Below, in pieces: positions 38,615-54,504 of a stretch of DNA of 64,000 nt (positions are counted from its first letter, which is position 1; the number at the start of each line of letters is the position of its first letter). The stretch is from Candidatus Calescibacterium sp. (GTDB lineage: Bacteria; Calescibacteriota; Calescibacteriia; Calescibacteriales; Calescibacteriaceae), in assembly GCA_032249135.1 (NCBI GenBank), contig JAVVGL010000001.1:126504-190503 (forward strand), read 5' to 3'. Both the position numbers and the translations under genes were made by a program. Below the pieces are notes generated by a model. It had not been told where the DNA came from. It did no database searches and saw only the letters and a program-made list of their open reading frames with translations.

Positions 38615-40804
38615 TTATTGTTTGAGACTCATAATGCTGTCGGGAAGATGTCTATTTAATTTTGTTCTATCACCCAATTGTCCCTCTCCATTTGCTCCCC
38701 AGCACCACAGAGATCCATCTTGCTTTATCGCACAGGTATGAGAACCACCAGATGATACATCCGATATATCTCTCATAATTTCAACTGGGTAAGTTTTATC
38801 TTTGTTTGTTCCATCACCAACTTGACCTGTAAGATTTCCTCCCCAACACAAAAGAGTACCATCTCTCTTTACCGCACAAGTATGTTTATGACCTGTTGAA
38901 ACTCGCAAAATATCATTTGTAATTAAGATAGGAATATTTTTATTTTTCCTGGTTCCATCTCCTAATTGTCCGTCTCCATTTGCTCCCCAGCACCACAGAG
39001 ATCCATCTTGCTTTACCGCACAAGTGTGTGACCCACCAGCCGATACATCTATTGCCCCATTCATAATTTCAACCGGATATGTTTTATCTTCGTAAGTTCC
39101 ATCTCCAACTTGCCCATATTTATTCCATCCCCAACACCAAAGTGAGAAATCCTTCTTTATTACGCAGGTATGGAAAGCACCGGCAGCTACTCGCAAGACA
39201 TCCGTGGTAATTAAAACAGGGAAATTTTTTCCATCAAAAGTTCCATCACCTAATTGTCCTTCCTCATTTCCTCCCCAACACCAAAGTGAGAAGTCTTTTT
39301 TTACCGCGCAGGTATGTCTATAACCTGCTGAAACTTGCAAGACATCTGATGTAATTAGAACAGGAAAGTTTTTATCTTCAAAAGTTCCGTCTCCAAGTTT
39401 CCCTTCCTTATTTTCCCCCCAACACCACAAGGAATTATCCTTTCTTACGGCACATGTGTGAAGAGAACCTGCGGAAACTTGTATTACATCAGAGGTAATT
39501 TTGACAGGATAGTTTTTATTTTCATAAGTTCCATCGCCTAACTGACCATATCTATTTGCTCCCCAACACCAAAGTGAGTTATCTTGTTTTATCACACAAG
39601 TGTGCAATGCACCTGCTGAAACCTGCAATATTGCGGGAAGAATAGCAACTGGCAAATTTCTATCCTCAAAAGTTCCATCACCGAGCTGTCCTTCCTTGTT
39701 TCCTCCCCAACACCGCAAAGAACCATCGTATCTTATTACGCATGTATGCCTATAACCCGCTGAAACATGCAAAACTCCGAGAGAAACTATTGTTGGCAAA
39801 TTTTTGTCTTCAAAAGTCCCGTCTCCCAATTGACCTTCCCAGTTTCCTCCCCAACACCAAAGTGAGGAGTCGCTCTTTACTATACAGGTATGCCTATAAC
39901 CTGCTGCAACTTCAATGACATCGTTTGTGATGAAGACAGGAAAATTTTTATCTTCAAAAGTTCCATCTCCAACTTGTCCATATTTATTCCACCCCCAGCA
40001 CCAAAGGGATTTATCTTTCTTTATCGCACAGGTATGAGATTCTCCTGCTACGACTTTGATGACATCGTTTGTAATGAGGACAGGAAAATTTTTATCTTCA
40101 AAAGTTCCATCTCCGAGTTGCCCATATTTATTCCAGCCCCAGCACCAAAGTGAGTTATCTTTCTTTATCGCACAGGTGTGGAAAGCCCCTGCTGCAACTT
40201 GCAAAACGCCGGTGGTAATTGTCACTGGTTCGTCTTTGTTTATATATGATCTGTCACCCAGTTGCCCTTCCCAGTTCCCTCCCCAACACTGAAGTGTTCG
40301 GTTTTGTTTCTTTATTGCACAAGTGTGGAAAGAACCAACTGCAACATCTAAAACATTGAAGGTAACAAAAACGGGAAAATTTTTGTTTTTTGTGGTTCCA
40401 TCTCCAATCTGTCCATATTGGTTCCATCCCCAGCACCATAAAGAGGCGTCCTTCATTACAGCACAAGTATGAAAAGCCCCCGATGAAACCTTGGAAACTT
40501 TGGAAAAAATTTTATTGGCTAAATTTTTATTTTTATATGTTCTATCACCTAATTGCCCGAATTCATTCCATCCCCAGCACCAGAGAGAACCATCTTTCTT
40601 CAGAGCGCATGTATGAAAAGCTCCTGAGCTAATTGAAATTATATCCGATAAAGCTTCCGATATTAGAGCTTTTTCTTTTTTCATCTCTGATTTGAATAGT
40701 GTGAAAGATAAAATACAGAAGATGGGACTCAAAATTTTTATTATGATTTTGCTTTTCCTGTTCTCTGATGCATCAAGTCTTCTCCTATTTACTCTGAAAT
40801 TCAT
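38615..40804 (-). CDS. Secreted RCC1-repeat beta-propeller protein
   Basis: N-terminal signal peptide, then >12 tandem ~50-aa repeats of the form GxxHTCAxKKDxSLWCWGxNxxGQLGDGT (RCC1/BLIP-II signature), giving two seven-bladed-propeller-sized units. Confidence 0.8.
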   Translation of the reverse strand: MNFRVNRRRLDASENRKSKIIIKILSPIFCILSFTLFKSEMKKEKALISEALSDIISISSGAFHTCALKKDGSLWCWGWNEFGQLGDRTYKNKNLANKIFSKVSKVSSGAFHTCAVMKDASLWCWGWNQYGQIGDGTTKNKNFPVFVTFNVLDVAVGSFHTCAIKKQNRTLQCWGGNWEGQLGDRSYINKDEPVTITTGVLQVAAGAFHTCAIKKDNSLWCWGWNKYGQLGDGTFEDKNFPVLITNDVIKVVAGESHTCAIKKDKSLWCWGWNKYGQVGDGTFEDKNFPVFITNDVIEVAAGYRHTCIVKSDSSLWCWGGNWEGQLGDGTFEDKNLPTIVSLGVLHVSAGYRHTCVIRYDGSLRCWGGNKEGQLGDGTFEDRNLPVAILPAILQVSAGALHTCVIKQDNSLWCWGANRYGQLGDGTYENKNYPVKITSDVIQVSAGSLHTCAVRKDNSLWCWGENKEGKLGDGTFEDKNFPVLITSDVLQVSAGYRHTCAVKKDFSLWCWGGNEEGQLGDGTFDGKNFPVLITTDVLRVAAGAFHTCVIKKDFSLWCWGWNKYGQVGDGTYEDKTYPVEIMNGAIDVSAGGSHTCAVKQDGSLWCWGANGDGQLGDGTRKNKNIPILITNDILRVSTGHKHTCAVKRDGTLLCWGGNLTGQVGDGTNKDKTYPVEIMRDISDVSSGGSHTCAIKQDGSLWCWGANGEGQLGDRTKLNRHLPDSIMSLKQ

Positions 40805-44592: not shown

Positions 44593-45273
44593 TTATTCAA
44601 CTTTAAAAAACGGGGGAAGAACTTCTGTTTTGTGTTTCACATCTTTTTGGCACATCAGCGCAAAAAAATCTGATTTAGATAGAGGTGAATGATGAAAAAA
44701 CTTTAAGAACACTGGTTTCAATCCTACCTTGTAAAAGTTTGAGAGAACCTCCCCAAGTCTAAAAGATGGATAGACAACATATACCCTTCCCTCCTTTTCC
44801 AAAATGTTTGAGGATATTTTTGCAAGTGTTTTGAGGTCAAGGTGTATTTCCCATTTTGCTATATCTGACTTTTTTGAAATCTTTCCCTCTCCTCTCGGTA
44901 AGTAGGGAGGATTAGAGACTACAATATTGAACTTCTGTTTGAAGTTTATTTGTTTTATATCACCGCATATTATATGAGCTTTCACATTATTATTTTTGTA
45001 ATTTAAACCTGAAACCAAAGCCATTTTTTTATCTATTTCTACCGATACAAGAAATTTTTCGCCTTTAAGCCACCTTGAAAGTAAAATCGTTATGATTCCA
45101 CATCCGCTCCCTATTTCAAGTAATTTCTTCTTCTTATCTTCTATTTTATTTTCTATCTCTGCCGTGAATTTTGCAAGAAAAATTGAATCATCTGAGAACT
45201 TCCATTTATCTTTCAACTGAAATATGCTTACATCAAAAATTTTAGTTTCTTCAAGTTCATATTCTTGGAACAT
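44593..45273 (-). CDS. SAM-dependent N6-adenine/N5-glutamine-type methyltransferase (NPPY motif; YfiC/TrmN6-like)
   Basis: SAM-binding motif LEIGSGCGIITILLS and catalytic VVSNPPYLP motif. Confidence 0.65.
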   Translation of the reverse strand: MFQEYELEETKIFDVSIFQLKDKWKFSDDSIFLAKFTAEIENKIEDKKKKLLEIGSGCGIITILLSRWLKGEKFLVSVEIDKKMALVSGLNYKNNNVKAHIICGDIKQINFKQKFNIVVSNPPYLPRGEGKISKKSDIAKWEIHLDLKTLAKISSNILEKEGRVYVVYPSFRLGEVLSNFYKVGLKPVFLKFFHHSPLSKSDFFALMCQKDVKHKTEVLPPFFKVE

Positions 45274-45472
45274 AAGACCAAAATAATAAAATAAAATAAT
45301 AACCTAAACATTGTTGTTTAGATGATTTTGAAAAAATCCGGAAAAACTCTGAATTTTCCTAAAACCTCCAAAATCACAAATTCTTGACTTCTTTATCAAA
45401 AATGATTATTGTTTTTTATATAGAGAAAGAAAAATAAAAAAGGAGGAAACCAAAAAATGTCTGCGAATGTAA

Positions 45473-45490
45473 AGAGAGAGAGAGAGAGAG
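45473..45490. repeat. (AG)9 dinucleotide repeat between an RBS/ATG (45441-45459) and the RHS-toxin reading frame
   Basis: Direct reading: aggaggaaaccaaaaaATGtctgcgaatgtaaAGAGAGAGAGAGAGAGAGgttggacgg. The ATG frame hits TAG at 45508. With one extra AG unit it becomes in frame with the lipoprotein signal peptide and ORF 45653-51607. Confidence 0.9.
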
Positions 45491-45652
45491 GTTGGACGGA
45501 AGCTCAATAGAGGATACCTCACTTCCTTCTTCTTCATCTCTCCTTTCTCCCTTTTCTCATTTTTCTCTCTTTTATTTATTTTCAGTTGCCAAAAAGAATC
45601 AAAAAGCAAATTTTTCATATCAGAAAAAGGTGGAGTTGTTGAAAAAGATGAG

Positions 45653-48600
45653 TTGAAAATAGTTATTCCAGATGGTGCTTTGGATGAACCAAAAGAAATT
45701 GAAATCAAAAAAGTAAAAATGAAAGGTGCAGTAGGTCCCGCATTCCAAATCTCTCCCGACATCAAATTCAAAATCCCTGCCGAAATATCTATAAAATATG
45801 AAAATAATAGCAATATCAACATCAAAACACAACAAAAAATAAAAGAAGAAGAGTTTTTGAGAATTGCTTTCTATGATAATGATAACAAAACTTGGGTACC
45901 TTATGAAAGCTATTTTGATGGACAAAGAGTTTTTGCAAAAACAGACCACCTTTCAACATGGGCTATCGTGAGCGATATGCTCTTCCCTGACCCTTCATCC
46001 TCATTCTCATCTTCTTCTTCATATGAACCACCAGCGGGTGAAGTCCCGCCACTCAAAGTAGAAGAGTTCAGTGTGCAAAATTTTAGAATGTCATCAAGAT
46101 TTTCCCAAAAGAGTGAATCAGAACTCAGCTATGAGGAGTTTTCAATTGGGAATTTTGCATCAATTTTGAGGGTAGATGAAGAAGGGAATGTTTGGTTTGC
46201 AGAACATGGATTTTTGAACCAATACGCAACTTATATTGGAAAACTTGATACAAGAACTGGTCAGGTGAAACTCTGGTGGCTTCCAGCTGGAAATTGGGTA
46301 TCAGATATAGAGGTAAAAGGCAGATATGTTTGGATAGTTTTGAGGTTAGGTCCTGACCTTGTGAGGTTCAACATGGACACAGAGACTTTCAAGTATTTCA
46401 GGGTTCCATCATATATAGGAAGTTGGCCATATGAGATAGATTTTGATGGAGATGGGAACATATGGATGACGGTGACAGTAGGGAGAGCGGTAGCAAAGTT
46501 TGATGTGAGACAAGAAAGTTTTGTTTTTTATTTCAGGATACCAGTTGGTTGGTGGACAGCGGGAGTGAAAGTAGATGGTAACAAAGTATGGGTGACAGAG
46601 ACATATTCTTGCGTAGGACCGTTCATTTACTATGTGAATGAGGGGAGGTTGAAACAGCTTTACCCATCAGAAAGATTCTGTCCCGGGACATTTTACATTT
46701 TGGAGGGAAAAGCGGTAGGAGGTATGGGAGGAGATAGGTTAGGGATTTTGGATGAGGAAGGAGTATTAGATGTTCATGGGATAGGATTAGAGTTCAGTGG
46801 ATGGATGGGAGTAAGAAAGGAAGATAGGAGTGTGTGGGCAGGGGGAAATAACTATGTTTTTTGGTATTCGGTAGGAGAAAGGATGATAAGAGGTAGGGCA
46901 AATTTTGAGAGTGGAGCAGGAGTGATAGCGGTGGAGGTAGATTTTGAGGGGAATGCGTGGGCAATTTTGAGGAATGTAAAGAAGGTGGTGAAGATAAAGT
47001 CAAAACCTGTTGTTTTAGGATGTGATAAGACATGCGGAGGTGGAGATGAGCAAACACCACTTGTTCATATAGGGCATAATCTTCATGTAAATTTAGTCTC
47101 AGGTAATCTTTATGAGGTTTTCCCTCTATTTGAATTTGATCCCGATTCATTGGGTTTGCAAGTTAGCTTGATTTACAATAGTTTAGACGAAAGTTCATCG
47201 TCTTTAGGACCAAGGTGGAGAACAAATTGGGATATAAGAATTATTCCCAAAGGGGAAGATTTAATTCTTATTTGGGAGGATGGAAAAAGAATAATCTACA
47301 AAAAAGTTTCACAAGGTACCTGGATATCGGATGAAAGAACAGCTTTCAAATCTATTCCCAAAATAACTTTTGATGGTTCTAACTATATTCTCCACCAAAG
47401 GGGAGGAACAATAAGAAAATTTGATAACGAAGGTAAAATTATTCTTATTGAAGATAGGAGAGGAAACAGATGGAATTTCATATATGAAGGTAATTTGTTA
47501 GTTAAGATTGTTGATCCTGTTGGGAGAAACATAGAATTCAAATATTCTGACGGAAAATTAAAGTCAATCAGAGATCCCATAGGAAATGAATGGGAATTTA
47601 GTTATGATGAAAGCGGTAGACTTGCTGCAATAAAAGACCCTCTTGGTGGTACTACTCATTATATTTACGACAATATGAATAGAATAATTGAAAAGAAAGA
47701 TGCTCTTGGGGTTCCTTTGAGGATAGTTTACGATGAAAAAGGTAGAGTTGCTAAATCAATAGATATGAAAGGACACGAGCTTTCCATAGCTTATAGTGGC
47801 AATACTGTTATCTTAACCAGCAGAAGAGGAATTACCCAAAGAATTGAGGTTGATAGTAATCTTAATGTTATTAAATTGCAAAGCGATCAATTGGGTAATA
47901 CATATAGATTTGAGTACGATGAAAGGGGAAATCTTATAAAGCAAATTACTCCATCTGGATTAAAGTTTGAGTATAAGTATGATGATGAAGGAAACTTGGT
48001 ACAAATAAAAGAACCCACAGGTGCAACCAAAAGCTATAAGTATAACCAATTCGGAGATATTGTGGAATATAAAAACGAGGCAGGTGGTATTTGGAGATAT
48101 GAATATGATGAAAAAGGAAATCTTATAAAGGAAATAGATCCTGTTGGAAGGGAGAAAAAATTCTTCTACAGCACCTTGGGAAACTTAACTGCAACAATTG
48201 ATCAACTCGGAAGAGTGTGGAGATATTCGTACGATGAATATGGTCATCTCAAAGAAGAAATAGATCCACTAGGAAATGTTAGAAAATACAGCTATGACAT
48301 ACTTGGAAGATTGATTTCACAGAAAAGTCCAAGAGGATATACAGTAACCTACGAGTATGACGCTCTTGGTAGATTGATAAAATTCACCGATCAATTAGGA
48401 AACAGCTTTATTCGGGTTTATAATTCTCGGGGAGAAGTTATATATAAAGAAGATCCTCATGAAGGAAGGTTAAGACTTTACTACGATTACAATATGAACC
48501 TCACAGCTGTTGTCGATGAACTTGAAAGAATTGGATATATGAATTACGACCATGACGGGAATCTTATTGAGAAAATAGATTTTGGTGGGGGTAGATGGGT

Positions 48601-51600
48601 ATTCTTTTATAATGAATCAAATCTCCCAGTAAAAGCAGTAGATCCACAAGGCGGTGAATGGAATTTTGAATATAATGGAGATGGAAAAAGGATCAGGGAA
48701 ATTCTACCTTCCGGTGCCGAGACAAAGGTAATATTAGATGAAGCCGGAAGAATAGCGAGAGTTGAATTTTACGATGGAGTAATTCTTACAAGAACTTATA
48801 ACATAATGGGACTTATAGTTGAGGAATCTATAAATGGTTTAGCAACACGGTATGAATATGATCTTGCAGGTAATCCTGTAAAGGTTGTCAGCCAAGATGG
48901 CTCAATCATATTTTATGATTTTACTGGTAGAGTTACAGCTACTACTGATCCTGCTGGCAATGTAACCTTATATCAATATGACTTTTTGGGTAGGCTGATA
49001 AAAGAGGTGAAGCCAGATGGAGGAATTTATGAATACTCTTACGATTCCGAGGGTAATTTGATATCTAAAAAAGATCCTCTAGGTAACATTACAAGATATG
49101 AATATGATGCTTTGGGTCGAGTTATAAAAATCATAGACCCCAAAGGTGCTGAAACATCTTTTACATATGCCCCAAAAGGGAATGTCACTTCTATAACAGA
49201 TCCGTTGGGAAGAAAAACACTTTACTACTATGATGCTTTAGGAAATGTTACGGCGGTTGTTGATCCTTCTGAAAGGGTGACAAGATACATTTATGATTCA
49301 GCGGGAAATGTCATAGCAATTTTGGATCCTGACGGAAGGTGGGTTAGTTTCAAGTATGATACATTAGGGAGAGTTATAGAAAAAAATATCGGTGGAAGGA
49401 TTTGGAAATATAAATACGATATAGGTGGTAATCTCATATCCGTTATAGATCCTCTGGGGAATGAAACAAAATATACATACGATATTTACGGGAGAATAGT
49501 TTCAGAGGAGGATCCACTGGGCAGGGTTATACACTATAAGTATGATAAGTTCGGAAATCTTATAGAGAAAACATACCATAACAACATCAGAATATCCTAT
49601 AAGTACGATAAATTTGGGCGTGTTATAGAAAAGGTTTATCCTGACAACACAAAGGTAACTTATGAATATGATAGAGCTGGTAGGTTGGTGAGAGCAAAGA
49701 ATAAGGATATTGATATTTCAAAAACATATGATTCTATGGGTAGGATAAGAGAAAACACATTGAAACTACCTGGATTCCCATCTTTCACTATCTATTATGA
49801 ATATGATCGGCTTGGGAGGAGGACAAAAATGATAGATCCTTTTGGTGGGGTTTTCAAATATTACTATGATGAAACAGGAAACTTAATATCTCTTGTGAAC
49901 TCCGAGGGAAGGGAGTTTAGGTTTGAGTATAATCTTGCAGGTGAAAGAACGAAGGTAATATATCCTAACGGTATCGTTGCAGAATATTCATATAACGGAT
50001 GTAATGCTGGCTGCAAAAGTAGTATGAGAGTTTCTAATATAACAATAACCAAAGATGGAAAGGAATTACTGCTTTCTTTTTCTTATAAATATGATGGGAG
50101 CGGGAATGTTACAGAAGTTGAAGAACCAGATAAAATTATTTCCTATTTTTATGATGACGCTAATGAGCTTGTTGGAGTAGATGTAAAGCACAAAAGAAAG
50201 GAGGAAAAAGATTACTTGTTCAGATATTTTTATGATCTTTTTGGGAACAGGGTTGGTATGAAAATTGAATCAAAAGATGAAGGTCTCCCTTTTGACCCTA
50301 ACTTGCAAAGAACTCTGGATGGATTTCCAAAACTTAAACATCCGTTAGAAATTTTCTATCTATTTGACAATGCTAACCAAATCATTTATGAGGAGGCAAG
50401 AAGGAGGAACGGAAGTACATATTATAAAGTTTTTTATGAATTTGATCCTGTTGGGAACCTTTCAAGAAAATTAGTCCAGAATTTTGAAGGTGGCAAAGTT
50501 GAGGAATTTTTAACTGAGTACATATATAACTTTGAAAATAAACTTAAAAAGATTATCTACCAAAAAGAAGGGGAAAAGAAGGAAAACTCGTTTTTGGTTT
50601 CTGACATAGATTCAAAAGTTTATAGGAGGAGTGATAGTAAAGGGGAAGTCAAATACTTTATATATGATGGAGAGAATATTCTTGCAGAACTTGATGAGAA
50701 GGGGAATTTACTAGCAAGATATACTTTTGGTCTTGGGGTAGATGAGATTTTGGGGAAGATTGAATTTAAGAAAAAAAACGGAAAAGGGAAAAACGGGAAT
50801 GGAAAAGGCGAATCACAGAAACAGAAAAATGAATTTTTCTACCATGTGGATGGAACTTTGTCTGTAAGAGCTATAACAGATGAAAGAGGGAATTTGGTAG
50901 CAAAGTATGATTATGATCCGTTTGGACGACCATTAAAGGTATGGGGAGGGGAAGAGGCAAGGGAAAACGTATTTTTATTTGGAGGTAGGGAATATATTCC
51001 AGAGGCAGGGATTTATGATTTCAGAGCAAGGGCGATGGATCCAAGATATGGAAGATTCACGCAAAAGGATCCAGTATTGGAGGCAGGGGGAGAGGATGGT
51101 AAAAGAAGACTTATTGAAAGGGGAACATCAAAGTTGTTCTGGAATCCATATGTTTACGCTGATAACAATCCGCTCAGAAACAAAGATCCTTTTGGGCTCT
51201 ACATAATACTTTGTGATACAAGAGATAAGAGGGTATGGAGAGCAACAAGAATTGTTGATAAGAAAATATTCAAAGAAAAGTGCGTTGGAGGTGGATGGCC
51301 ATTTGGTTTGGGAAGTTGCCTCAGGAGAATTTCATATACTGTGACAATAAAATGTGCAAGAATGGATCGTTGTGGTAAAGCTTTTCATATCATAGATGTT
51401 TGGCTCAAACATGGTCTTGTCTTCAGTAAAAGTGCCGACGAAAAAACAGTAACGAACTGTTTACCATGCTTAAAATCAATGACAATAGAAGAGGTAATTG
51501 CATCAACTATATTACATGAAATGGTACATGTCTGCTGCAGGGGTGAGAATACTGCGGATAGGTGTGAGAGAAAATGTTTTTGTGGTTCGGACGAAAAATG

Positions 51601-51607
51601 TCCATAA
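45653..51607 (+). CDS. RHS/YD-repeat polymorphic toxin with C-terminal HExxH Cys-rich toxin domain (annotated from internal TTG; probable true start ATG 45457 via the repeat tract)
   Basis: >40 YD repeats (YDxxGNLxxxxDPxGxxxxYxYD). RHS-associated core ending at the DPxGL motif (RNKDPFGLY, ~nt 51185). ~140-aa variable C-terminal domain with ILHEMVHVCC. An in-frame lipoprotein signal peptide (...LLFIFSCQKES) lies upstream and lacks a canonical start in that frame. Confidence 0.85.
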   Translation: MKIVIPDGALDEPKEIEIKKVKMKGAVGPAFQISPDIKFKIPAEISIKYENNSNINIKTQQKIKEEEFLRIAFYDNDNKTWVPYESYFDGQRVFAKTDHLSTWAIVSDMLFPDPSSSFSSSSSYEPPAGEVPPLKVEEFSVQNFRMSSRFSQKSESELSYEEFSIGNFASILRVDEEGNVWFAEHGFLNQYATYIGKLDTRTGQVKLWWLPAGNWVSDIEVKGRYVWIVLRLGPDLVRFNMDTETFKYFRVPSYIGSWPYEIDFDGDGNIWMTVTVGRAVAKFDVRQESFVFYFRIPVGWWTAGVKVDGNKVWVTETYSCVGPFIYYVNEGRLKQLYPSERFCPGTFYILEGKAVGGMGGDRLGILDEEGVLDVHGIGLEFSGWMGVRKEDRSVWAGGNNYVFWYSVGERMIRGRANFESGAGVIAVEVDFEGNAWAILRNVKKVVKIKSKPVVLGCDKTCGGGDEQTPLVHIGHNLHVNLVSGNLYEVFPLFEFDPDSLGLQVSLIYNSLDESSSSLGPRWRTNWDIRIIPKGEDLILIWEDGKRIIYKKVSQGTWISDERTAFKSIPKITFDGSNYILHQRGGTIRKFDNEGKIILIEDRRGNRWNFIYEGNLLVKIVDPVGRNIEFKYSDGKLKSIRDPIGNEWEFSYDESGRLAAIKDPLGGTTHYIYDNMNRIIEKKDALGVPLRIVYDEKGRVAKSIDMKGHELSIAYSGNTVILTSRRGITQRIEVDSNLNVIKLQSDQLGNTYRFEYDERGNLIKQITPSGLKFEYKYDDEGNLVQIKEPTGATKSYKYNQFGDIVEYKNEAGGIWRYEYDEKGNLIKEIDPVGREKKFFYSTLGNLTATIDQLGRVWRYSYDEYGHLKEEIDPLGNVRKYSYDILGRLISQKSPRGYTVTYEYDALGRLIKFTDQLGNSFIRVYNSRGEVIYKEDPHEGRLRLYYDYNMNLTAVVDELERIGYMNYDHDGNLIEKIDFGGGRWVFFYNESNLPVKAVDPQGGEWNFEYNGDGKRIREILPSGAETKVILDEAGRIARVEFYDGVILTRTYNIMGLIVEESINGLATRYEYDLAGNPVKVVSQDGSIIFYDFTGRVTATTDPAGNVTLYQYDFLGRLIKEVKPDGGIYEYSYDSEGNLISKKDPLGNITRYEYDALGRVIKIIDPKGAETSFTYAPKGNVTSITDPLGRKTLYYYDALGNVTAVVDPSERVTRYIYDSAGNVIAILDPDGRWVSFKYDTLGRVIEKNIGGRIWKYKYDIGGNLISVIDPLGNETKYTYDIYGRIVSEEDPLGRVIHYKYDKFGNLIEKTYHNNIRISYKYDKFGRVIEKVYPDNTKVTYEYDRAGRLVRAKNKDIDISKTYDSMGRIRENTLKLPGFPSFTIYYEYDRLGRRTKMIDPFGGVFKYYYDETGNLISLVNSEGREFRFEYNLAGERTKVIYPNGIVAEYSYNGCNAGCKSSMRVSNITITKDGKELLLSFSYKYDGSGNVTEVEEPDKIISYFYDDANELVGVDVKHKRKEEKDYLFRYFYDLFGNRVGMKIESKDEGLPFDPNLQRTLDGFPKLKHPLEIFYLFDNANQIIYEEARRRNGSTYYKVFYEFDPVGNLSRKLVQNFEGGKVEEFLTEYIYNFENKLKKIIYQKEGEKKENSFLVSDIDSKVYRRSDSKGEVKYFIYDGENILAELDEKGNLLARYTFGLGVDEILGKIEFKKKNGKGKNGNGKGESQKQKNEFFYHVDGTLSVRAITDERGNLVAKYDYDPFGRPLKVWGGEEARENVFLFGGREYIPEAGIYDFRARAMDPRYGRFTQKDPVLEAGGEDGKRRLIERGTSKLFWNPYVYADNNPLRNKDPFGLYIILCDTRDKRVWRATRIVDKKIFKEKCVGGGWPFGLGSCLRRISYTVTIKCARMDRCGKAFHIIDVWLKHGLVFSKSADEKTVTNCLPCLKSMTIEEVIASTILHEMVHVCCRGENTADRCERKCFCGSDEKCP

Positions 51608-52731
51608 ACCATAGCATGGTTCCGTTTTTTCTATTTCTGTTATTATTATTTTATTTCCCACTTTCATTTCATAGTTGTATTACTTATTGGTGTCATTATA
51701 CTCCCAATTATGATCCAGTGTATATTGAAGGTAAAATTTATTTCGTTGATGTTAGGGGAACGCTTTACATCATAGACCAACAAGGTAAAGTAGATAAGAT
51801 AAAATTGGTAAAGGAAGGAGAAAAGGTAGAGGAATGGGGGATATTTTATCGTCCAATAGTACCTTGTGGCAACAGAATTTTTATAAACATAAAAGAGCAA
51901 AGCATCATATCACTGAACTACCAAGGCGAACTAACAGAATATAAGGTTGAAGAAGCTAAATTTTCTCCTTACTTCTTCCTCTATTGCACAACACAAGGCT
52001 TATTTATGATAAACCAGGATATTATGATTCCCCCAGATAATAGAATAATGAGAATTTTTGACATCTCTGACTTACTTTCTCCAAATAGGGAAATAAAACC
52101 AAAACTTTTAGGCGAATTTGATAAAGTTTGCGAACCTCTTGGAATCAGAAATTTCTTTCCTTTTCCTTCTTCCAATATTTGGCTTATTTGCCGAGATAAA
52201 AACTATAATTATAAAGTTTTCAAATTTGATCCTCAAACCTCCAATTTTTTTGAAGTATCAGAGTTTGCAGGATTGTATTCAACTTTGATTTATGATAGTA
52301 TAATAATACGTGTCAAAGGATTTTGGAGTGAAGGTAAGTATATTTATGCTATTATAGCAAGAGACATAAGTGGAAATTTATTATGGAAAAGAGAATTTGA
52401 TCACTACTGGGAAAGATCATTTTTAATTGGAGGAGCAATAGTAATGTTAAGACAGGATATTAAAGAACATCATAGGCAAATCAAAACAATTTTGGAAAAA
52501 TATATTTTCCTATCTCCTTATACCGGTGAAGTACTTTTAGAGAAGGATATAAGATTTGAGGTACCAGGATATATAATTGGTGAAGAAATAACTCCTGAAT
52601 GGGAACTTTATATCATATGGATTAATGAAGAAAAAGCAAAAAAGGAGATATTGCTACTTGATCTGAAAAATGGTGGAGTAAAATGGAAATTAGATTTAGA
52701 TTTCGCTCCTCCCACGTGCATTAAAAAATAA
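51598..52731 (+). CDS. Lipoprotein, paralog A of a tandem pair downstream of the RHS toxin (candidate immunity protein)
   Basis: Probable start ATG 51598 (MSINHSMVPFFLFLLLLFYFPLSFHSC...), overlapping the RHS stop codon as ATGTCCATAA. Shares blocks with the next ORF (IISLNYQGELTEYKVEEAKF vs IISVDFEGNITKRYNLDFKEEF; C-termini LLLDLKNGGVKWKLDLDFAPPTC vs LLKLDLKEGKMEWNTEINFTEPEC). Confidence 0.55.
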   Translation: MSINHSMVPFFLFLLLLFYFPLSFHSCITYWCHYTPNYDPVYIEGKIYFVDVRGTLYIIDQQGKVDKIKLVKEGEKVEEWGIFYRPIVPCGNRIFINIKEQSIISLNYQGELTEYKVEEAKFSPYFFLYCTTQGLFMINQDIMIPPDNRIMRIFDISDLLSPNREIKPKLLGEFDKVCEPLGIRNFFPFPSSNIWLICRDKNYNYKVFKFDPQTSNFFEVSEFAGLYSTLIYDSIIIRVKGFWSEGKYIYAIIARDISGNLLWKREFDHYWERSFLIGGAIVMLRQDIKEHHRQIKTILEKYIFLSPYTGEVLLEKDIRFEVPGYIIGEEITPEWELYIIWINEEKAKKEILLLDLKNGGVKWKLDLDFAPPTCIKK

Positions 52732-52747
52732 TGAATAGTTTAGAAAA

Positions 52748-54079
52748 ATGCATTTGTATAATATAGTTGTACTAATACTAATTTTAATCTTTAATCTTTT
52801 AATCTTTACTCCATTTTGCTCCAATGATCAGGTCTTAAAGGAAGTTTTTTCTTGTCTTACTAGGTGGTATATTGAATGTACACATCCTCCATACGAGTTA
52901 TTACTCTGCAAAGATAAAATTCTTTTCTTAGATAGAAATGGAAGGCTTTGGAGCATTTCATCATCTGGTAATATAGATTGGGTAAAAAATACCGGCATTA
53001 AGAGAAATTTTTATGATGCTCTGCTAGCATGTGATGACTTTTCCATATATGTGGTCTCCAAAAACCAAATCATATCAGTTGATTTTGAAGGAAATATCAC
53101 AAAAAGATATAACCTTGATTTCAAAGAAGAGTTTCATTTCAATGATGCTGTATTTATTGGCAAGAAACTAATTTTAATCTCACGGAGAAAAATTCTTGCT
53201 TTTGATATTGATAAATGGAAAATGATATGGGTAAAAGATGCTACTGAAAACTCTTTTCAGGATTTCACCTCTATTTCAGAAAATCAAGCTATTTTCTCTT
53301 CTAATTCAAACATATATAAGATAGACTTGCAAACAGGTGATGTAATCAACAAAATCTCATTAGAGGATTACTTCAAAGAAGAAAGATGTATTTTTCATAT
53401 GCCTGTGGTGAATAAAGATTATGGTTATGTAGATGGTGTCTATTACTATCATGAAAACAAGTATCCTTCGCCACTATCTTATATATGGTTAAGATGTTAT
53501 TATTACATTGATGGTAAAAGAAAAGAAAAGATTTTAGGTATTGAACCTGAAAATTTCAATATAGTCTTTCCTCCAACTGAAATTCCTAAATTCGGTCAGG
53601 TAGTTGGGATTTTTCAAGATAAATTGATTCTCGCAGATAATTTTCAAAATGGCAGCACCATCACTCTATACGCTTTGAGCGTTACCGGAGAAATTTTGTG
53701 GGAAAGAAAAATAGAAGGAATTGAATTTTTTGGTACAGTTCAACCTGGAGATGTTACAATTTATATATCAAAAGGTTACAAGACAATATTTTTAGTTTAT
53801 CCCTTTACCGGGGAAATTTTACATAAGACCACTGATATAAATATCAATTTTCATACTTTTACAAGAAAAGGAGCAGATGAAATAGGTGAGCTTTTAGATA
53901 TAAAGAATGCAAAGTTGTATCTTTTATGGATTTACGGAGATGCATATGAGGAGAGAAAAGAAAGGAAAGGACTTTTGAAATTAGATTTGAAAGAAGGGAA
54001 AATGGAATGGAATACTGAGATAAACTTTACCGAACCAGAGTGTCATAGAGATAAGATGCCAATAAGGTGGTATAGATAA
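52748..54079 (+). CDS. Lipoprotein, paralog B of the tandem pair downstream of the RHS toxin
   Basis: Signal peptide MHLYNIVVLILILIFNLLIFTPFCSND. Shares sequence blocks along its length with the preceding ORF. Beta-rich repeat appearance. Confidence 0.55.
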   Translation: MHLYNIVVLILILIFNLLIFTPFCSNDQVLKEVFSCLTRWYIECTHPPYELLLCKDKILFLDRNGRLWSISSSGNIDWVKNTGIKRNFYDALLACDDFSIYVVSKNQIISVDFEGNITKRYNLDFKEEFHFNDAVFIGKKLILISRRKILAFDIDKWKMIWVKDATENSFQDFTSISENQAIFSSNSNIYKIDLQTGDVINKISLEDYFKEERCIFHMPVVNKDYGYVDGVYYYHENKYPSPLSYIWLRCYYYIDGKRKEKILGIEPENFNIVFPPTEIPKFGQVVGIFQDKLILADNFQNGSTITLYALSVTGEILWERKIEGIEFFGTVQPGDVTIYISKGYKTIFLVYPFTGEILHKTTDININFHTFTRKGADEIGELLDIKNAKLYLLWIYGDAYEERKERKGLLKLDLKEGKMEWNTEINFTEPECHRDKMPIRWYR

Positions 54080-54093
54080 CCTACAACAAACTA

Positions 54094-54504
54094 CTACTTA
54101 TCTGATGATTTTTCTTCTTCTGTTTTTGGTTTCAATCTTTGTTTTATTTCTGGTAAAACCTTTTCTGCTATATCTGGAATAAGGTTTATCGCTTTTTCTA
54201 AAAGTGCGGATTGCGGTTTTGATGTTGAATGAAATACGGCTTGACCTTCATCTGTTATGACAAGCAATCCTATTGGCTCAACCGATATAGCTCCACCAGA
54301 AGCCCCGATTTCTTTTTCAGACCGAGAACCAGCCATAAATCCTATCTTCAACTTAGAAAGTGGAATAATACATGCTTTCCCAACTGTTATAGGCTTTCCG
54401 ACAATTGTTTCGGAACTTACCACATCTTTTATTCTCTGAAACAGAGAATCAAGAATACTCTCAAGACCCGATGTATTACTTTTCCCTTTTTCTTTTTCCT
54501 CCAT
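54094..54504 (-). CDS. GerW/YtfJ-family protein
   Basis: ...VVSSETIVGKPITVGKACIIPLSKLKIGFMAGSRSEKEIGASGGAISVEPIGLLVITDEGQAVF matches the GerW (YtfJ_HI0045) family core. Confidence 0.65.
   Translation of the reverse strand: MEEKEKGKSNTSGLESILDSLFQRIKDVVSSETIVGKPITVGKACIIPLSKLKIGFMAGSRSEKEIGASGGAISVEPIGLLVITDEGQAVFHSTSKPQSALLEKAINLIPDIAEKVLPEIKQRLKPKTEEEKSSDK

Follow-up and report, generated by a model that had tools for sequence, protein, structure and literature searches.

In the genome of Candidatus Calescibacterium, a hot-spring bacterium of the uncultivated phylum Candidatus Calescibacteriota, an RHS/YD-repeat gene with a rare, cysteine-rich C-terminal tip is followed immediately by two paralogous genes for exported proteins, denoted here ORF1 and ORF2 (ORF, open reading frame). 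Analysis of this locus within a 64-kb stretch of DNA, referred to below as the window, together with its relatives in metagenomes, makes it probable that ORF1 encodes the exported immunity protein cognate to the tip and that ORF2 is an orphan immunity gene directed against a variant tip. An earlier, sequence-only reading of the window had offered as alternatives an exported immunity mechanism and a cognate immunity gene accompanied by a diverged orphan copy; the comparative evidence presented here supports both at once. The three ORFs are co-oriented on the plus strand between genes encoding a methyltransferase (44593-45273, minus strand) and a ytfJ-like protein (54094-54504, minus strand), and the same locus is carried, with 99.6-100% identity, by five metagenome contigs (L001-L005).

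The RHS gene (45653-51607, plus strand, counted from its first canonical start codon, TTG) encodes a protein of 1984 amino acids (aa). The YD-repeat shell and the DPxGL boundary recognized in the sequence-only reading were recovered with Pfam and NCBIfam models, which detect 18 RHS_repeat stretches (PF05593, E = 1.6e-155; TIGR01643, E = 1.3e-123) along with DUF6531 and YD_repeat_2x. An N-terminal module (approximately aa 1-110) and a weak propeller-like region (approximately aa 169-297) precede DUF6531 (aa 478-549), which is followed by the YD shell, the RHS-associated core domain (Rhs_assc_core; TIGR03696, E = 2.3e-14; aa 1754-1849; 50912-51199, plus strand) and the tip. The end of the core reads NKDPFGL, followed by YIIL. 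A DPFGL-type end of the RHS core is the autoproteolytic boundary of this family. Because Rhs_assc_core ends in DPFGL, the tip, hereinafter tipA, comprises the last 135 aa of the protein (51200-51604, plus strand); it contains 13 Cys residues and an HEMVH motif at 51515-51529.

The tip had been expected to be unique and about 140 aa long, and indeed, profile searches with tipA yielded no match in Pfam, NCBIfam or the PDB sequences. Pfam matches at E ≤ 10 were limited to C4 (E = 0.014) and SprT-like (E = 0.24), and a distant relative of the tip, P0016, matches Astacin at E = 0.009, below the threshold. A word-indexed search with the tip retrieved two homologs, P0006 and P0007, both stand-alone proteins of 169-179 aa, the latter of which carries a lipoprotein signal of its own. 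When 1.84 billion representative proteins were scanned in full with the tip profile (HMMER), 9 matches only were obtained: the two stand-alone proteins; P0012, in which a variant tip is joined to a near-identical RHS core; P0014, the RHS protein of locus L013; P0015-P0017, a distant subfamily located on C-terminal fragments of RHS proteins; P0018, in which the tip lies behind an eCIS_core domain within an extracellular contractile injection system (eCIS) gene cluster; and P0013, a spurious repeat protein. No tip relative was detected with the same profile among the GTDB species-representative genomes. In an alignment of eight sequences (A8), H106, E107, H110 and six Cys residues of the tip are invariant, and an acidic residue is located 6-11 residues downstream of the HExxH motif. 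Given the RHS and eCIS contexts, the rarity of the family and the invariant H, E, H and six Cys residues, the tip appears to represent a rare kind of C-terminal toxin module in polymorphic toxins that is as yet undescribed. By its HExxH motif, it is a putative zinc metallopeptidase-type domain, which would act in the cell envelope.

ORF1 (51598-52731, plus strand; alternative starts at 51574 and 51616) starts at ATG 51598, within ...AAATGTCCATAA, and overlaps the RHS stop codon TAA (51605-51607); the overlap, which reads ATGTCCATAA, is the one described in the sequence-only reading, and since the start of ORF1 overlaps the RHS stop, ORF1 probably is translationally coupled to the RHS gene. The length of 385 aa previously assigned to ORF1 belongs to the alternative start at ATG 51574, and translation from ATG 51598 gives 377 aa. 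ORF2 (52748-54079, plus strand; 443 aa; NCBI MDT7906573.1, annotated as 'hypothetical protein') starts 16 nucleotides (nt) after the ORF1 stop. In agreement with the earlier description, the two proteins are full-length paralogs (BLASTP E = 1e-14, 23% identity over 420 columns) that share an N-terminal SC..W..C and a C-terminal P.C motif, with Cys-containing C-termini FAPPTC and FTEPEC, respectively. Both were also described as exported lipoproteins. The first part of this claim stands, in that both N-termini are strongly hydrophobic and have the features of signal peptides; the second does not, at least in its canonical form, because the putative lipoboxes FHSC (ORF1) and TPFC (ORF2) fail the PROSITE-type pattern, which is passed by the frame-restored RHS protein of the window (see below), the L013 RHS protein, P0007 and the propellers of loci L011 and L012. 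Judging from these signals, export of ORF1 and ORF2 is well supported, and their lipidation is not secure. The start region of ORF2 (52731-52760; L006 11125-11215; L010 1700-1760) differs between strains by 1-2-base indels in A-runs: the window ORF starts at MHLYN, the start is located more upstream in L010 and P0008 (MNSLEKLRLRN... or MRLRN...), and in L006 and L009 a 2-nt insertion separates the signal peptide from the mature part.

Sequence profiles and structural modeling place the paralogs among beta-propellers. There is no Pfam or NCBIfam match for ORF1, and ORF2 produces only sub-threshold matches to PQQ_2 (19.6 bits vs the cut-off of 27.6), ASST and propeller models; neither protein matches an NCBIfam BamB model. 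Against the PDB sequences, the family profile retrieves PQQ-type designed propellers (1e-12), PQQ proteins (5e-8) and BamB (approximately 1e-5). The AlphaFold2 (AF2) model of ORF1 (mean predicted local distance difference test score, pLDDT, 74.4; predicted TM-score, pTM, 0.74) is all-beta, with approximately seven four-stranded blades after the signal helix, that is, the seven-bladed version of the propeller fold that the sequence-only reading had proposed to look for, and BamB is among its top Foldseek matches. ORF1 and ORF2 thus share a fold superfamily with BamB. Their identification as BamB was rejected: the models score below threshold, the number of blades differs from the eight of BamB, and ORF1 is deleted in one of the haplotypes described below (H4) and absent in another (H3). 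Like the tip, the propeller family is exceedingly rare. The search with ORF1 returned five clusters among 5.8 billion proteins, and a search with the family profile A5, in which 8000 word-sharing candidates were scored, contributed no more than the cluster of ORF2 itself, the member from L013 and two weak PQQ outgroups. With the patterns used (ORF2 profile), the family was not found in 185,579 GTDB species representatives.

A gene-neighborhood comparison, suggested already by the sequence-only reading, links the two families. In the HEMVH[VL]C subfamily, each of the six tip genes, found in five loci (the window, L014, L013, L012 and, with two tip genes, L011), is followed by a member of the propeller family that overlaps or abuts the tip stop codon. 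In L013, where the RHS protein is diverged and the tip is 41% identical to tipA, a family member of 403 aa, whose signal reads LLSNC, begins 16 nt ahead of the stop codon of RHS. Locus L011 is a tandem array consisting of the 3' end of a tip gene, a propeller, a second tip (P0007) and a second propeller. Neither propeller starts later than the stop codon of the tip gene before it; the first of the two propellers is similar to ORF2 (E = 5e-42) and the second to ORF1 (1e-8). In L012, P0006 is located between the C-terminus of one propeller and the N-terminus of another. Finally, the gene directly behind the variant tip of L014, tipB, is of the ORF2 type; its nt identity is 94% from codon ~40 on, its signal peptide differs, and no ORF1 intervenes. 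Because the tip and propeller families are both so rare, chance adjacency is not credible. Qualitatively, the pairing looks tip-specific, with tipA accompanied by ORF1 and tipB by an ORF2-type gene.

The site between the methyltransferase and ytfJ-like genes is a population-level hotspot at which toxin/immunity cassettes are gained and lost and immunity genes are retained. At least four haplotypes occupy this one chromosomal site, which, in terms of the proposed functions, comprise both immunity genes (A and B) behind toxin A, immunity B behind toxin B, immunity genes without a toxin, and immunity B by itself. Haplotype H1 (the window and L001-L005) consists of the leader, RHS-tipA, ORF1 and ORF2. 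Haplotype H2 (L006, L007, L009, L010 and L017) lacks the RHS gene and consists of the leader, a candidate third paralog, ORF1' and ORF2'. Its leader is the same as in the window up to 45517, including the ATG and a shorter (AG)5 tract, and the sequence becomes homologous to the window again at 51631, within the signal peptide of ORF1; ORF1' and ORF2' show 84-85% and 92% aa identity to their window counterparts. The first gene of H2 encodes a signal-peptide protein of 382-391 aa that gives BLASTP matches to ORF2 (1.7e-5) and to the L011 partner (5.8e-5), with no significant match to ORF1, and may tentatively be considered a distant third paralog. Haplotype H3, represented by the 1.4-kb contig L014, combines an RHS core that is 90% nt identical to window 50522-51400 with tipB (P0012), followed by the ORF2-type gene, without ORF1. 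The divergence between tipB and tipA spares a 73-nt island around HEMVHVCC, and the contig probably comes from a sister strain of the same species. In haplotype H4 (L018, L019 and L020), window positions 45313-52613 are deleted; what remains is an intact ORF2 and, of ORF1, the final 118 nt.

Because remnants of the RHS 5' end or of ORF1 are kept, the RHS-less haplotypes were derived by loss; for H2, it is the retained RHS start region that suggests an RHS-bearing ancestor. ORF2 is present in every flank-to-flank arrangement, and its ORF2-type counterpart on the short H3 contig is visible at the 5' end only. ORF1 is always present together with tipA and, in the absence of tipA, is either lost or kept. 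Such a pattern, with H2 keeping ORF1' and ORF2' next to an RHS 5' remnant and H4 keeping ORF2, would be typical of immunity genes. The paralogs also appear to evolve faster than their surroundings. Between H1 and H2, the nonsynonymous divergence (dN) is 0.082 for ORF1 and 0.034 for ORF2, with ratios of nonsynonymous to synonymous divergence (dN/dS) of 0.44 and 0.31, compared with dN of 0.005-0.019 and dN/dS of 0.05-0.14 for most neighbor genes. Within ORF1, codons 235-300 (52300-52497, plus strand) show 64% aa identity to the RHS-less haplotype and a dN/dS of approximately 0.84, against 0.2-0.3 in the rest of the gene. A decay of divergence away from the swap junction was looked for, and a discrete hypervariable patch inside ORF1 was found instead. 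We counted the fast protein evolution of ORF1 (0.44, and 0.84 in the patch) and ORF2 (0.31) in favor of an immunity function.

The 5' end of the RHS gene has a peculiar structure. The sequence-only reading let the locus begin at position 45457, which needs a correction: the ATG at this position, preceded by a strong ribosome-binding site (AAGGAGG, 45441-45447), opens a 17-codon ORF (45457-45510, plus strand; stop TAG 45508) that is out of frame with RHS. The RHS frame is open from 45473 to 51607, and its first canonical start is the TTG at 45653. Between the two frames lies an (AG)9 tract (45473-45490, plus strand), the sole dinucleotide run of more than 5 units within the window, and one AG unit more or two fewer would restore the frame, joining ATG 45457 to RHS. 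When the frame is restored, the segment 45511-45589 (plus strand) encodes a signal peptide with a lipobox (...YLTSFFFISPFSLFSFFSLLFIFSC; ...SLLFIFSC; Cys codon 45587-45589) that passes the PROSITE-type rule. The residues that follow the lipobox Cys (CQKESKSKFFISEKGGVVEKDELKIVIPDGAL) are conserved in the L013 RHS homolog, which has an in-frame MKRIAVILALLFGC signal. Because of this signal peptide and lipobox, the conserved residues downstream of the Cys and the in-frame signal of L013, the stretch upstream of TTG 45653 is evidently coding. ATG 45457 probably is the true RHS start codon, currently out of frame. The tract varies between strains, being (AG)5 in L006 and L007 and as long as in the window in the independent contig L001, and the segment with ATG 45457 is kept in the RHS-less relatives up to 45517. 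The (AG)n tract is a candidate phase-variation switch that may control RHS expression; a frameshift site or a silenced gene are possible alternatives.

A signal peptide with a lipobox points to a delivery route other than type VI secretion (T6SS). The RHS ORF has no PAAR or related Pfam match, and the remaining genome was not searched for T6SS genes; instead of a T6SS module, the RHS frame contains the N-terminal signal peptide and lipobox, as does the L013 homolog. Upstream of DUF6531, aa 169-297 give a weak Vgb_lyase-type propeller signal (E ~ 1e-3). The 26-31 single-nucleotide polymorphisms (SNPs) that separate otherwise identical H1 contigs (L001 and L002) from the window all fall within 45998-46915, a 0.9-kb stretch of this N-terminal, propeller-like region. 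Diversifying selection was ruled out as the cause of the cluster because the SNPs are mostly synonymous (dN/dS approximately 0.06), and the stretch therefore represents a recombination tract, which looks imported. The module of aa 1-110 (45653-45980), which is common to the L013 RHS protein, ends in DHLSTW. ZU5 domains occur at the N-termini of some RHS toxins, and HLSTW presumably resembles their autoproteolytic HFS motif; Pfam gave no ZU5 match, and a ZU5-like nature of this module is not claimed here.

Taken together, these observations can be accommodated by the following mechanism. The RHS protein would be exported by Sec as a lipoprotein and would display or release the disulfide-rich HExxH domain, which might damage an envelope component of neighboring cells. 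The exported ORF1 propeller, residing in the same compartment (the periplasm or the outer membrane), would bind and block tipA, possibly with its variable patch as the contact surface. ORF2 would likewise neutralize tipB and would be kept as an orphan against tipB-bearing kin, and RHS expression may be turned on or off through changes in the length of the (AG)n tract. The predicted compartments match: lipoprotein signals are found in the RHS proteins and P0007, the tip contains 13 Cys, and all partners have signal peptides. The contexts of the tip, at the C-terminus of RHS proteins (P0014-P0017), behind eCIS_core (P0018) and as a stand-alone lipoprotein (P0007), are in turn those of a toxin-type module.

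Several results weigh against this interpretation. The pairing of tipB with an ORF2-type gene is known from one 1.4-kb contig whose RHS gene has a frame break, and a Mantel test of tip vs partner similarity over six pairs is not significant (r = 0.29, p = 0.064). The neighbors of the distant tip subfamily are small beta-rich proteins (135-150 aa), not propellers; these downstream proteins also carry signal peptides, and thus, the partner fold is not universal and export of the partner is. ORF1 and ORF2 occur in strains without RHS, as an RHS-independent function would likewise predict, and the breakpoint of the RHS replacement lies between the tip and ORF1, not around a joint toxin-immunity cassette. 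The RHS gene of the window is not intact from its start codon, and the copies in L013 and L014 are interrupted too, so that all three RHS assemblies are broken: by the frameshift in the window, at 4628-4630 in L013, where a TAG replaces the Trp codon of HLSTW, and at ~219-255 in L014, by a frame break in the core. Possible reasons for these breaks, which lie in the core or close to the 5' end, are phase variation, noise in the assembly or a cost imposed by the toxin. Furthermore, tipA matches no peptidase or Tox-MPTase model above threshold, and its AF2 model, built from a 3-sequence alignment, is unusable (mean pLDDT 38.6); it is accordingly the conserved HExxH motif, and no other feature, that points to a peptidase.

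Other interpretations have to be weighed against the same observations. Strict adjacency and translational coupling suit any obligate partner, and propellers are generic protein-binding scaffolds. Instead of or besides being inhibitors, ORF1 and ORF2 might thus be accessory factors of the toxin, such as chaperones for folding or disulfide formation, factors for activation, or partners in surface display or receptor binding; PefE and Tli have been reported to be necessary for the activity of their effectors. This is unlikely in view of the toxin-less strains, which keep the propellers intact under purifying selection, as would be sensible for immunity proteins but not for a helper without a client, and in view of ORF2, which is retained beside a tip whose own partner is ORF1.

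Slightly less likely is that the tip is a secreted protease put to a non-bactericidal use, be it feeding or attack on non-bacterial or unrelated cells, and that the propellers are periplasmic inhibitors protecting the producer during export, in the manner of the AprI/Inh inhibitors of serralysins. The stand-alone lipoprotein version with its own signal peptide (P0007), the conserved HExxH motif, the many Cys residues and the export of the partners would all fit such a role. However, RHS and eCIS proteins carry the tip as their C-terminal cassette; two contigs that are nearly identical in the RHS core, the second of them probably from a sister strain, have different tips; and orphan partners are kept in toxin-less strains. 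Cassette use, tip variation and orphan retention are hallmarks of kin-directed polymorphic toxins.

We consider it highly improbable that the propellers, by descent from PQQ/BamB-type envelope lipoproteins, are decoys, that is, uncleavable target mimics that soak up the protease. The target of the toxin could in this case be an envelope propeller such as BamB or another lipoprotein associated with the beta-barrel assembly machinery (BAM), and the locus would then represent a new toxin family linked to outer-membrane biogenesis in a candidate phylum.

Just as improbable, finally, are ordinary BamB/PQQ-type envelope propellers or nutrient-binding lipoproteins that happen to lie in a recombination hotspot hit by an RHS insertion: the JGI label of the ORF2 cluster ('outer membrane protein assembly factor BamB'), BamB among the top Foldseek matches, PDB profile matches to PQQ propellers and BamB (1e-12 to 1e-5) and the presence of the genes without RHS in several strains are countered by the sub-threshold PQQ_2 score of ORF2, the lack of a Pfam match for ORF1 and of an NCBIfam BamB match for both, the deletion or absence of ORF1 in two haplotypes, the renewed adjacency of family members to tip genes in unrelated organisms, and the failure to find the family in the GTDB representatives searched. 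The sequence-only reading had named confident homology of the paralogs to a housekeeping family found without RHS neighbors as evidence against immunity. This condition is touched in a formal sense alone: RHS-less strains do carry the paralogs, in haplotypes that were derived by loss, and the BamB and PQQ_2 matches remain below threshold.

If ORF1 and ORF2 are indeed immunity proteins, the locus would bring together an undescribed toxin domain, which is exported, rich in Cys and of the HExxH type, and a dedicated family of immunity proteins in the form of full-size beta-propellers. The set of haplotypes shows cassette turnover in an uncultivated hot-spring phylum and amounts to a natural population experiment, and the locus supplies defined tip-propeller pairs for the analysis of specificity along with a candidate repeat-based on/off switch of an RHS toxin.

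Housekeeping genes, namely dnaK, a tetR-family gene, the RNase PH gene, nfeD and hisA/F, flank the locus. Some other differences between strains were observed in the surrounding region. A minus-strand ORF of 729 aa (38615-40804) contains internal DNA repeats that are approximately 63-76% identical; its counterparts in L006 and L017 produce RCC1-repeat Pfam matches and are much shorter or fragmented, and the number of repeats is therefore strain-variable. An 838-aa lipase/alpha-beta-hydrolase-like gene is present in L006 (15354-17870), between hisA/F and a diacylglycerol kinase-like gene, and is missing from the window (junction 56987/57035). The segment 44484-44583, in the intergenic region between the RNase PH and methyltransferase genes, is unalignable with L006 (~50% identity), and both of its flanks are more than 95% identical.

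The individual components of this locus have counterparts among known systems. In its overall layout, it resembles WapA/WapI of Bacillus subtilis, a Sec-exported RHS-type toxin with a downstream immunity gene, and T6SS effectors that act in the envelope are as a rule countered by periplasmic immunity proteins. At Rhs and contact-dependent growth inhibition (CDI) loci, orphan immunity genes and the displacement of cassettes were reportedly described by Poole et al. in 2011 and Koskiniemi et al. in 2014. As in such displacement, a new tip with its immunity gene here appears to be located upstream of an older immunity gene, and toxin-less strains keep immunity; in contrast to it, there are no orphan tip fragments, and the putative immunity genes are paralogs of one family, not genes for unrelated proteins.

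To call immunity proteins of this type unprecedented would be too strong. PefE of Proteus mirabilis is a predicted bladed beta-propeller immunity protein whose variable regions cluster on a single face, and two versions of PefE are present in some P. mirabilis isolates (PMC5714391, PMC3764213, bioRxiv 10.1101/2023.03.28.534661). The PefD/PefE pair resembles the present locus in that the immunity protein is a bladed propeller, whose specificity is set by the variable face, and that PefD is predicted to be disulfide-rich. However, PefD is delivered by T6SS with PAAR, whereas the RHS protein described here has a Sec/lipoprotein signal and no T6SS marker; furthermore, the toxin domain of PefD belongs to a family other than that of tipA, and the likeness of PefE to ORF1 and ORF2 is one of predicted fold. 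Tsi1 of Pseudomonas aeruginosa is a periplasmic, all-beta, disulfide-stabilized partial propeller that neutralizes the envelope hydrolase Tse1 (PMC3391265). With its three sheets, Tsi1 is small next to the full propellers ORF1 and ORF2 (377-443 aa), and Tse1 is a cysteine amidase delivered by T6SS, unlike tipA, which is an RHS tip.

Bacterial teneurin-like proteins (TLPs) consist of a YD shell with a PxxxxDPxG-type cleavage motif and a small polymorphic C-terminal domain; their Gram-negative members have signal peptidase II (SPII) lipoprotein signals, and an immunity gene is located immediately downstream (PMC13018210). The YD shell, the DPxG-type boundary, the polymorphic C-terminal domain, the lipoprotein signal and the downstream gene are all matched here. 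The TLP superfold combines, in this order, the FN-plug, NHL and the YD shell; in the window, DUF6531 is preceded by a weak propeller-like region, as judged from primary structure, and the reported TLP immunity genes are small, unlike ORF1 and ORF2. With respect to the tip, the closest analogs are Tox-MPTase1-5, small HExxH domains at RHS C-termini for which Zhang et al. (2012, PMC3482391) list no immunity family. Both these domains and tipA contain HExxH, but no Pfam Tox-MPTase or peptidase model matches tipA (best, SprT-like, E = 0.24), and tipA is set apart by its high Cys content and exported partners. The same 2012 census includes no propellers among immunity proteins and one lipoprotein immunity family only, Imm65 (PMC3482391). 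Thus, the general scheme, in which an RHS toxin is accompanied by an immunity gene downstream and by orphan immunity genes according to the Rhs, CDI and teneurin-like logic, is already known, and what is new here is the toxin domain family, the dedicated family of full-propeller partners, their proposed use as paralogous specificity variants and the phylum.

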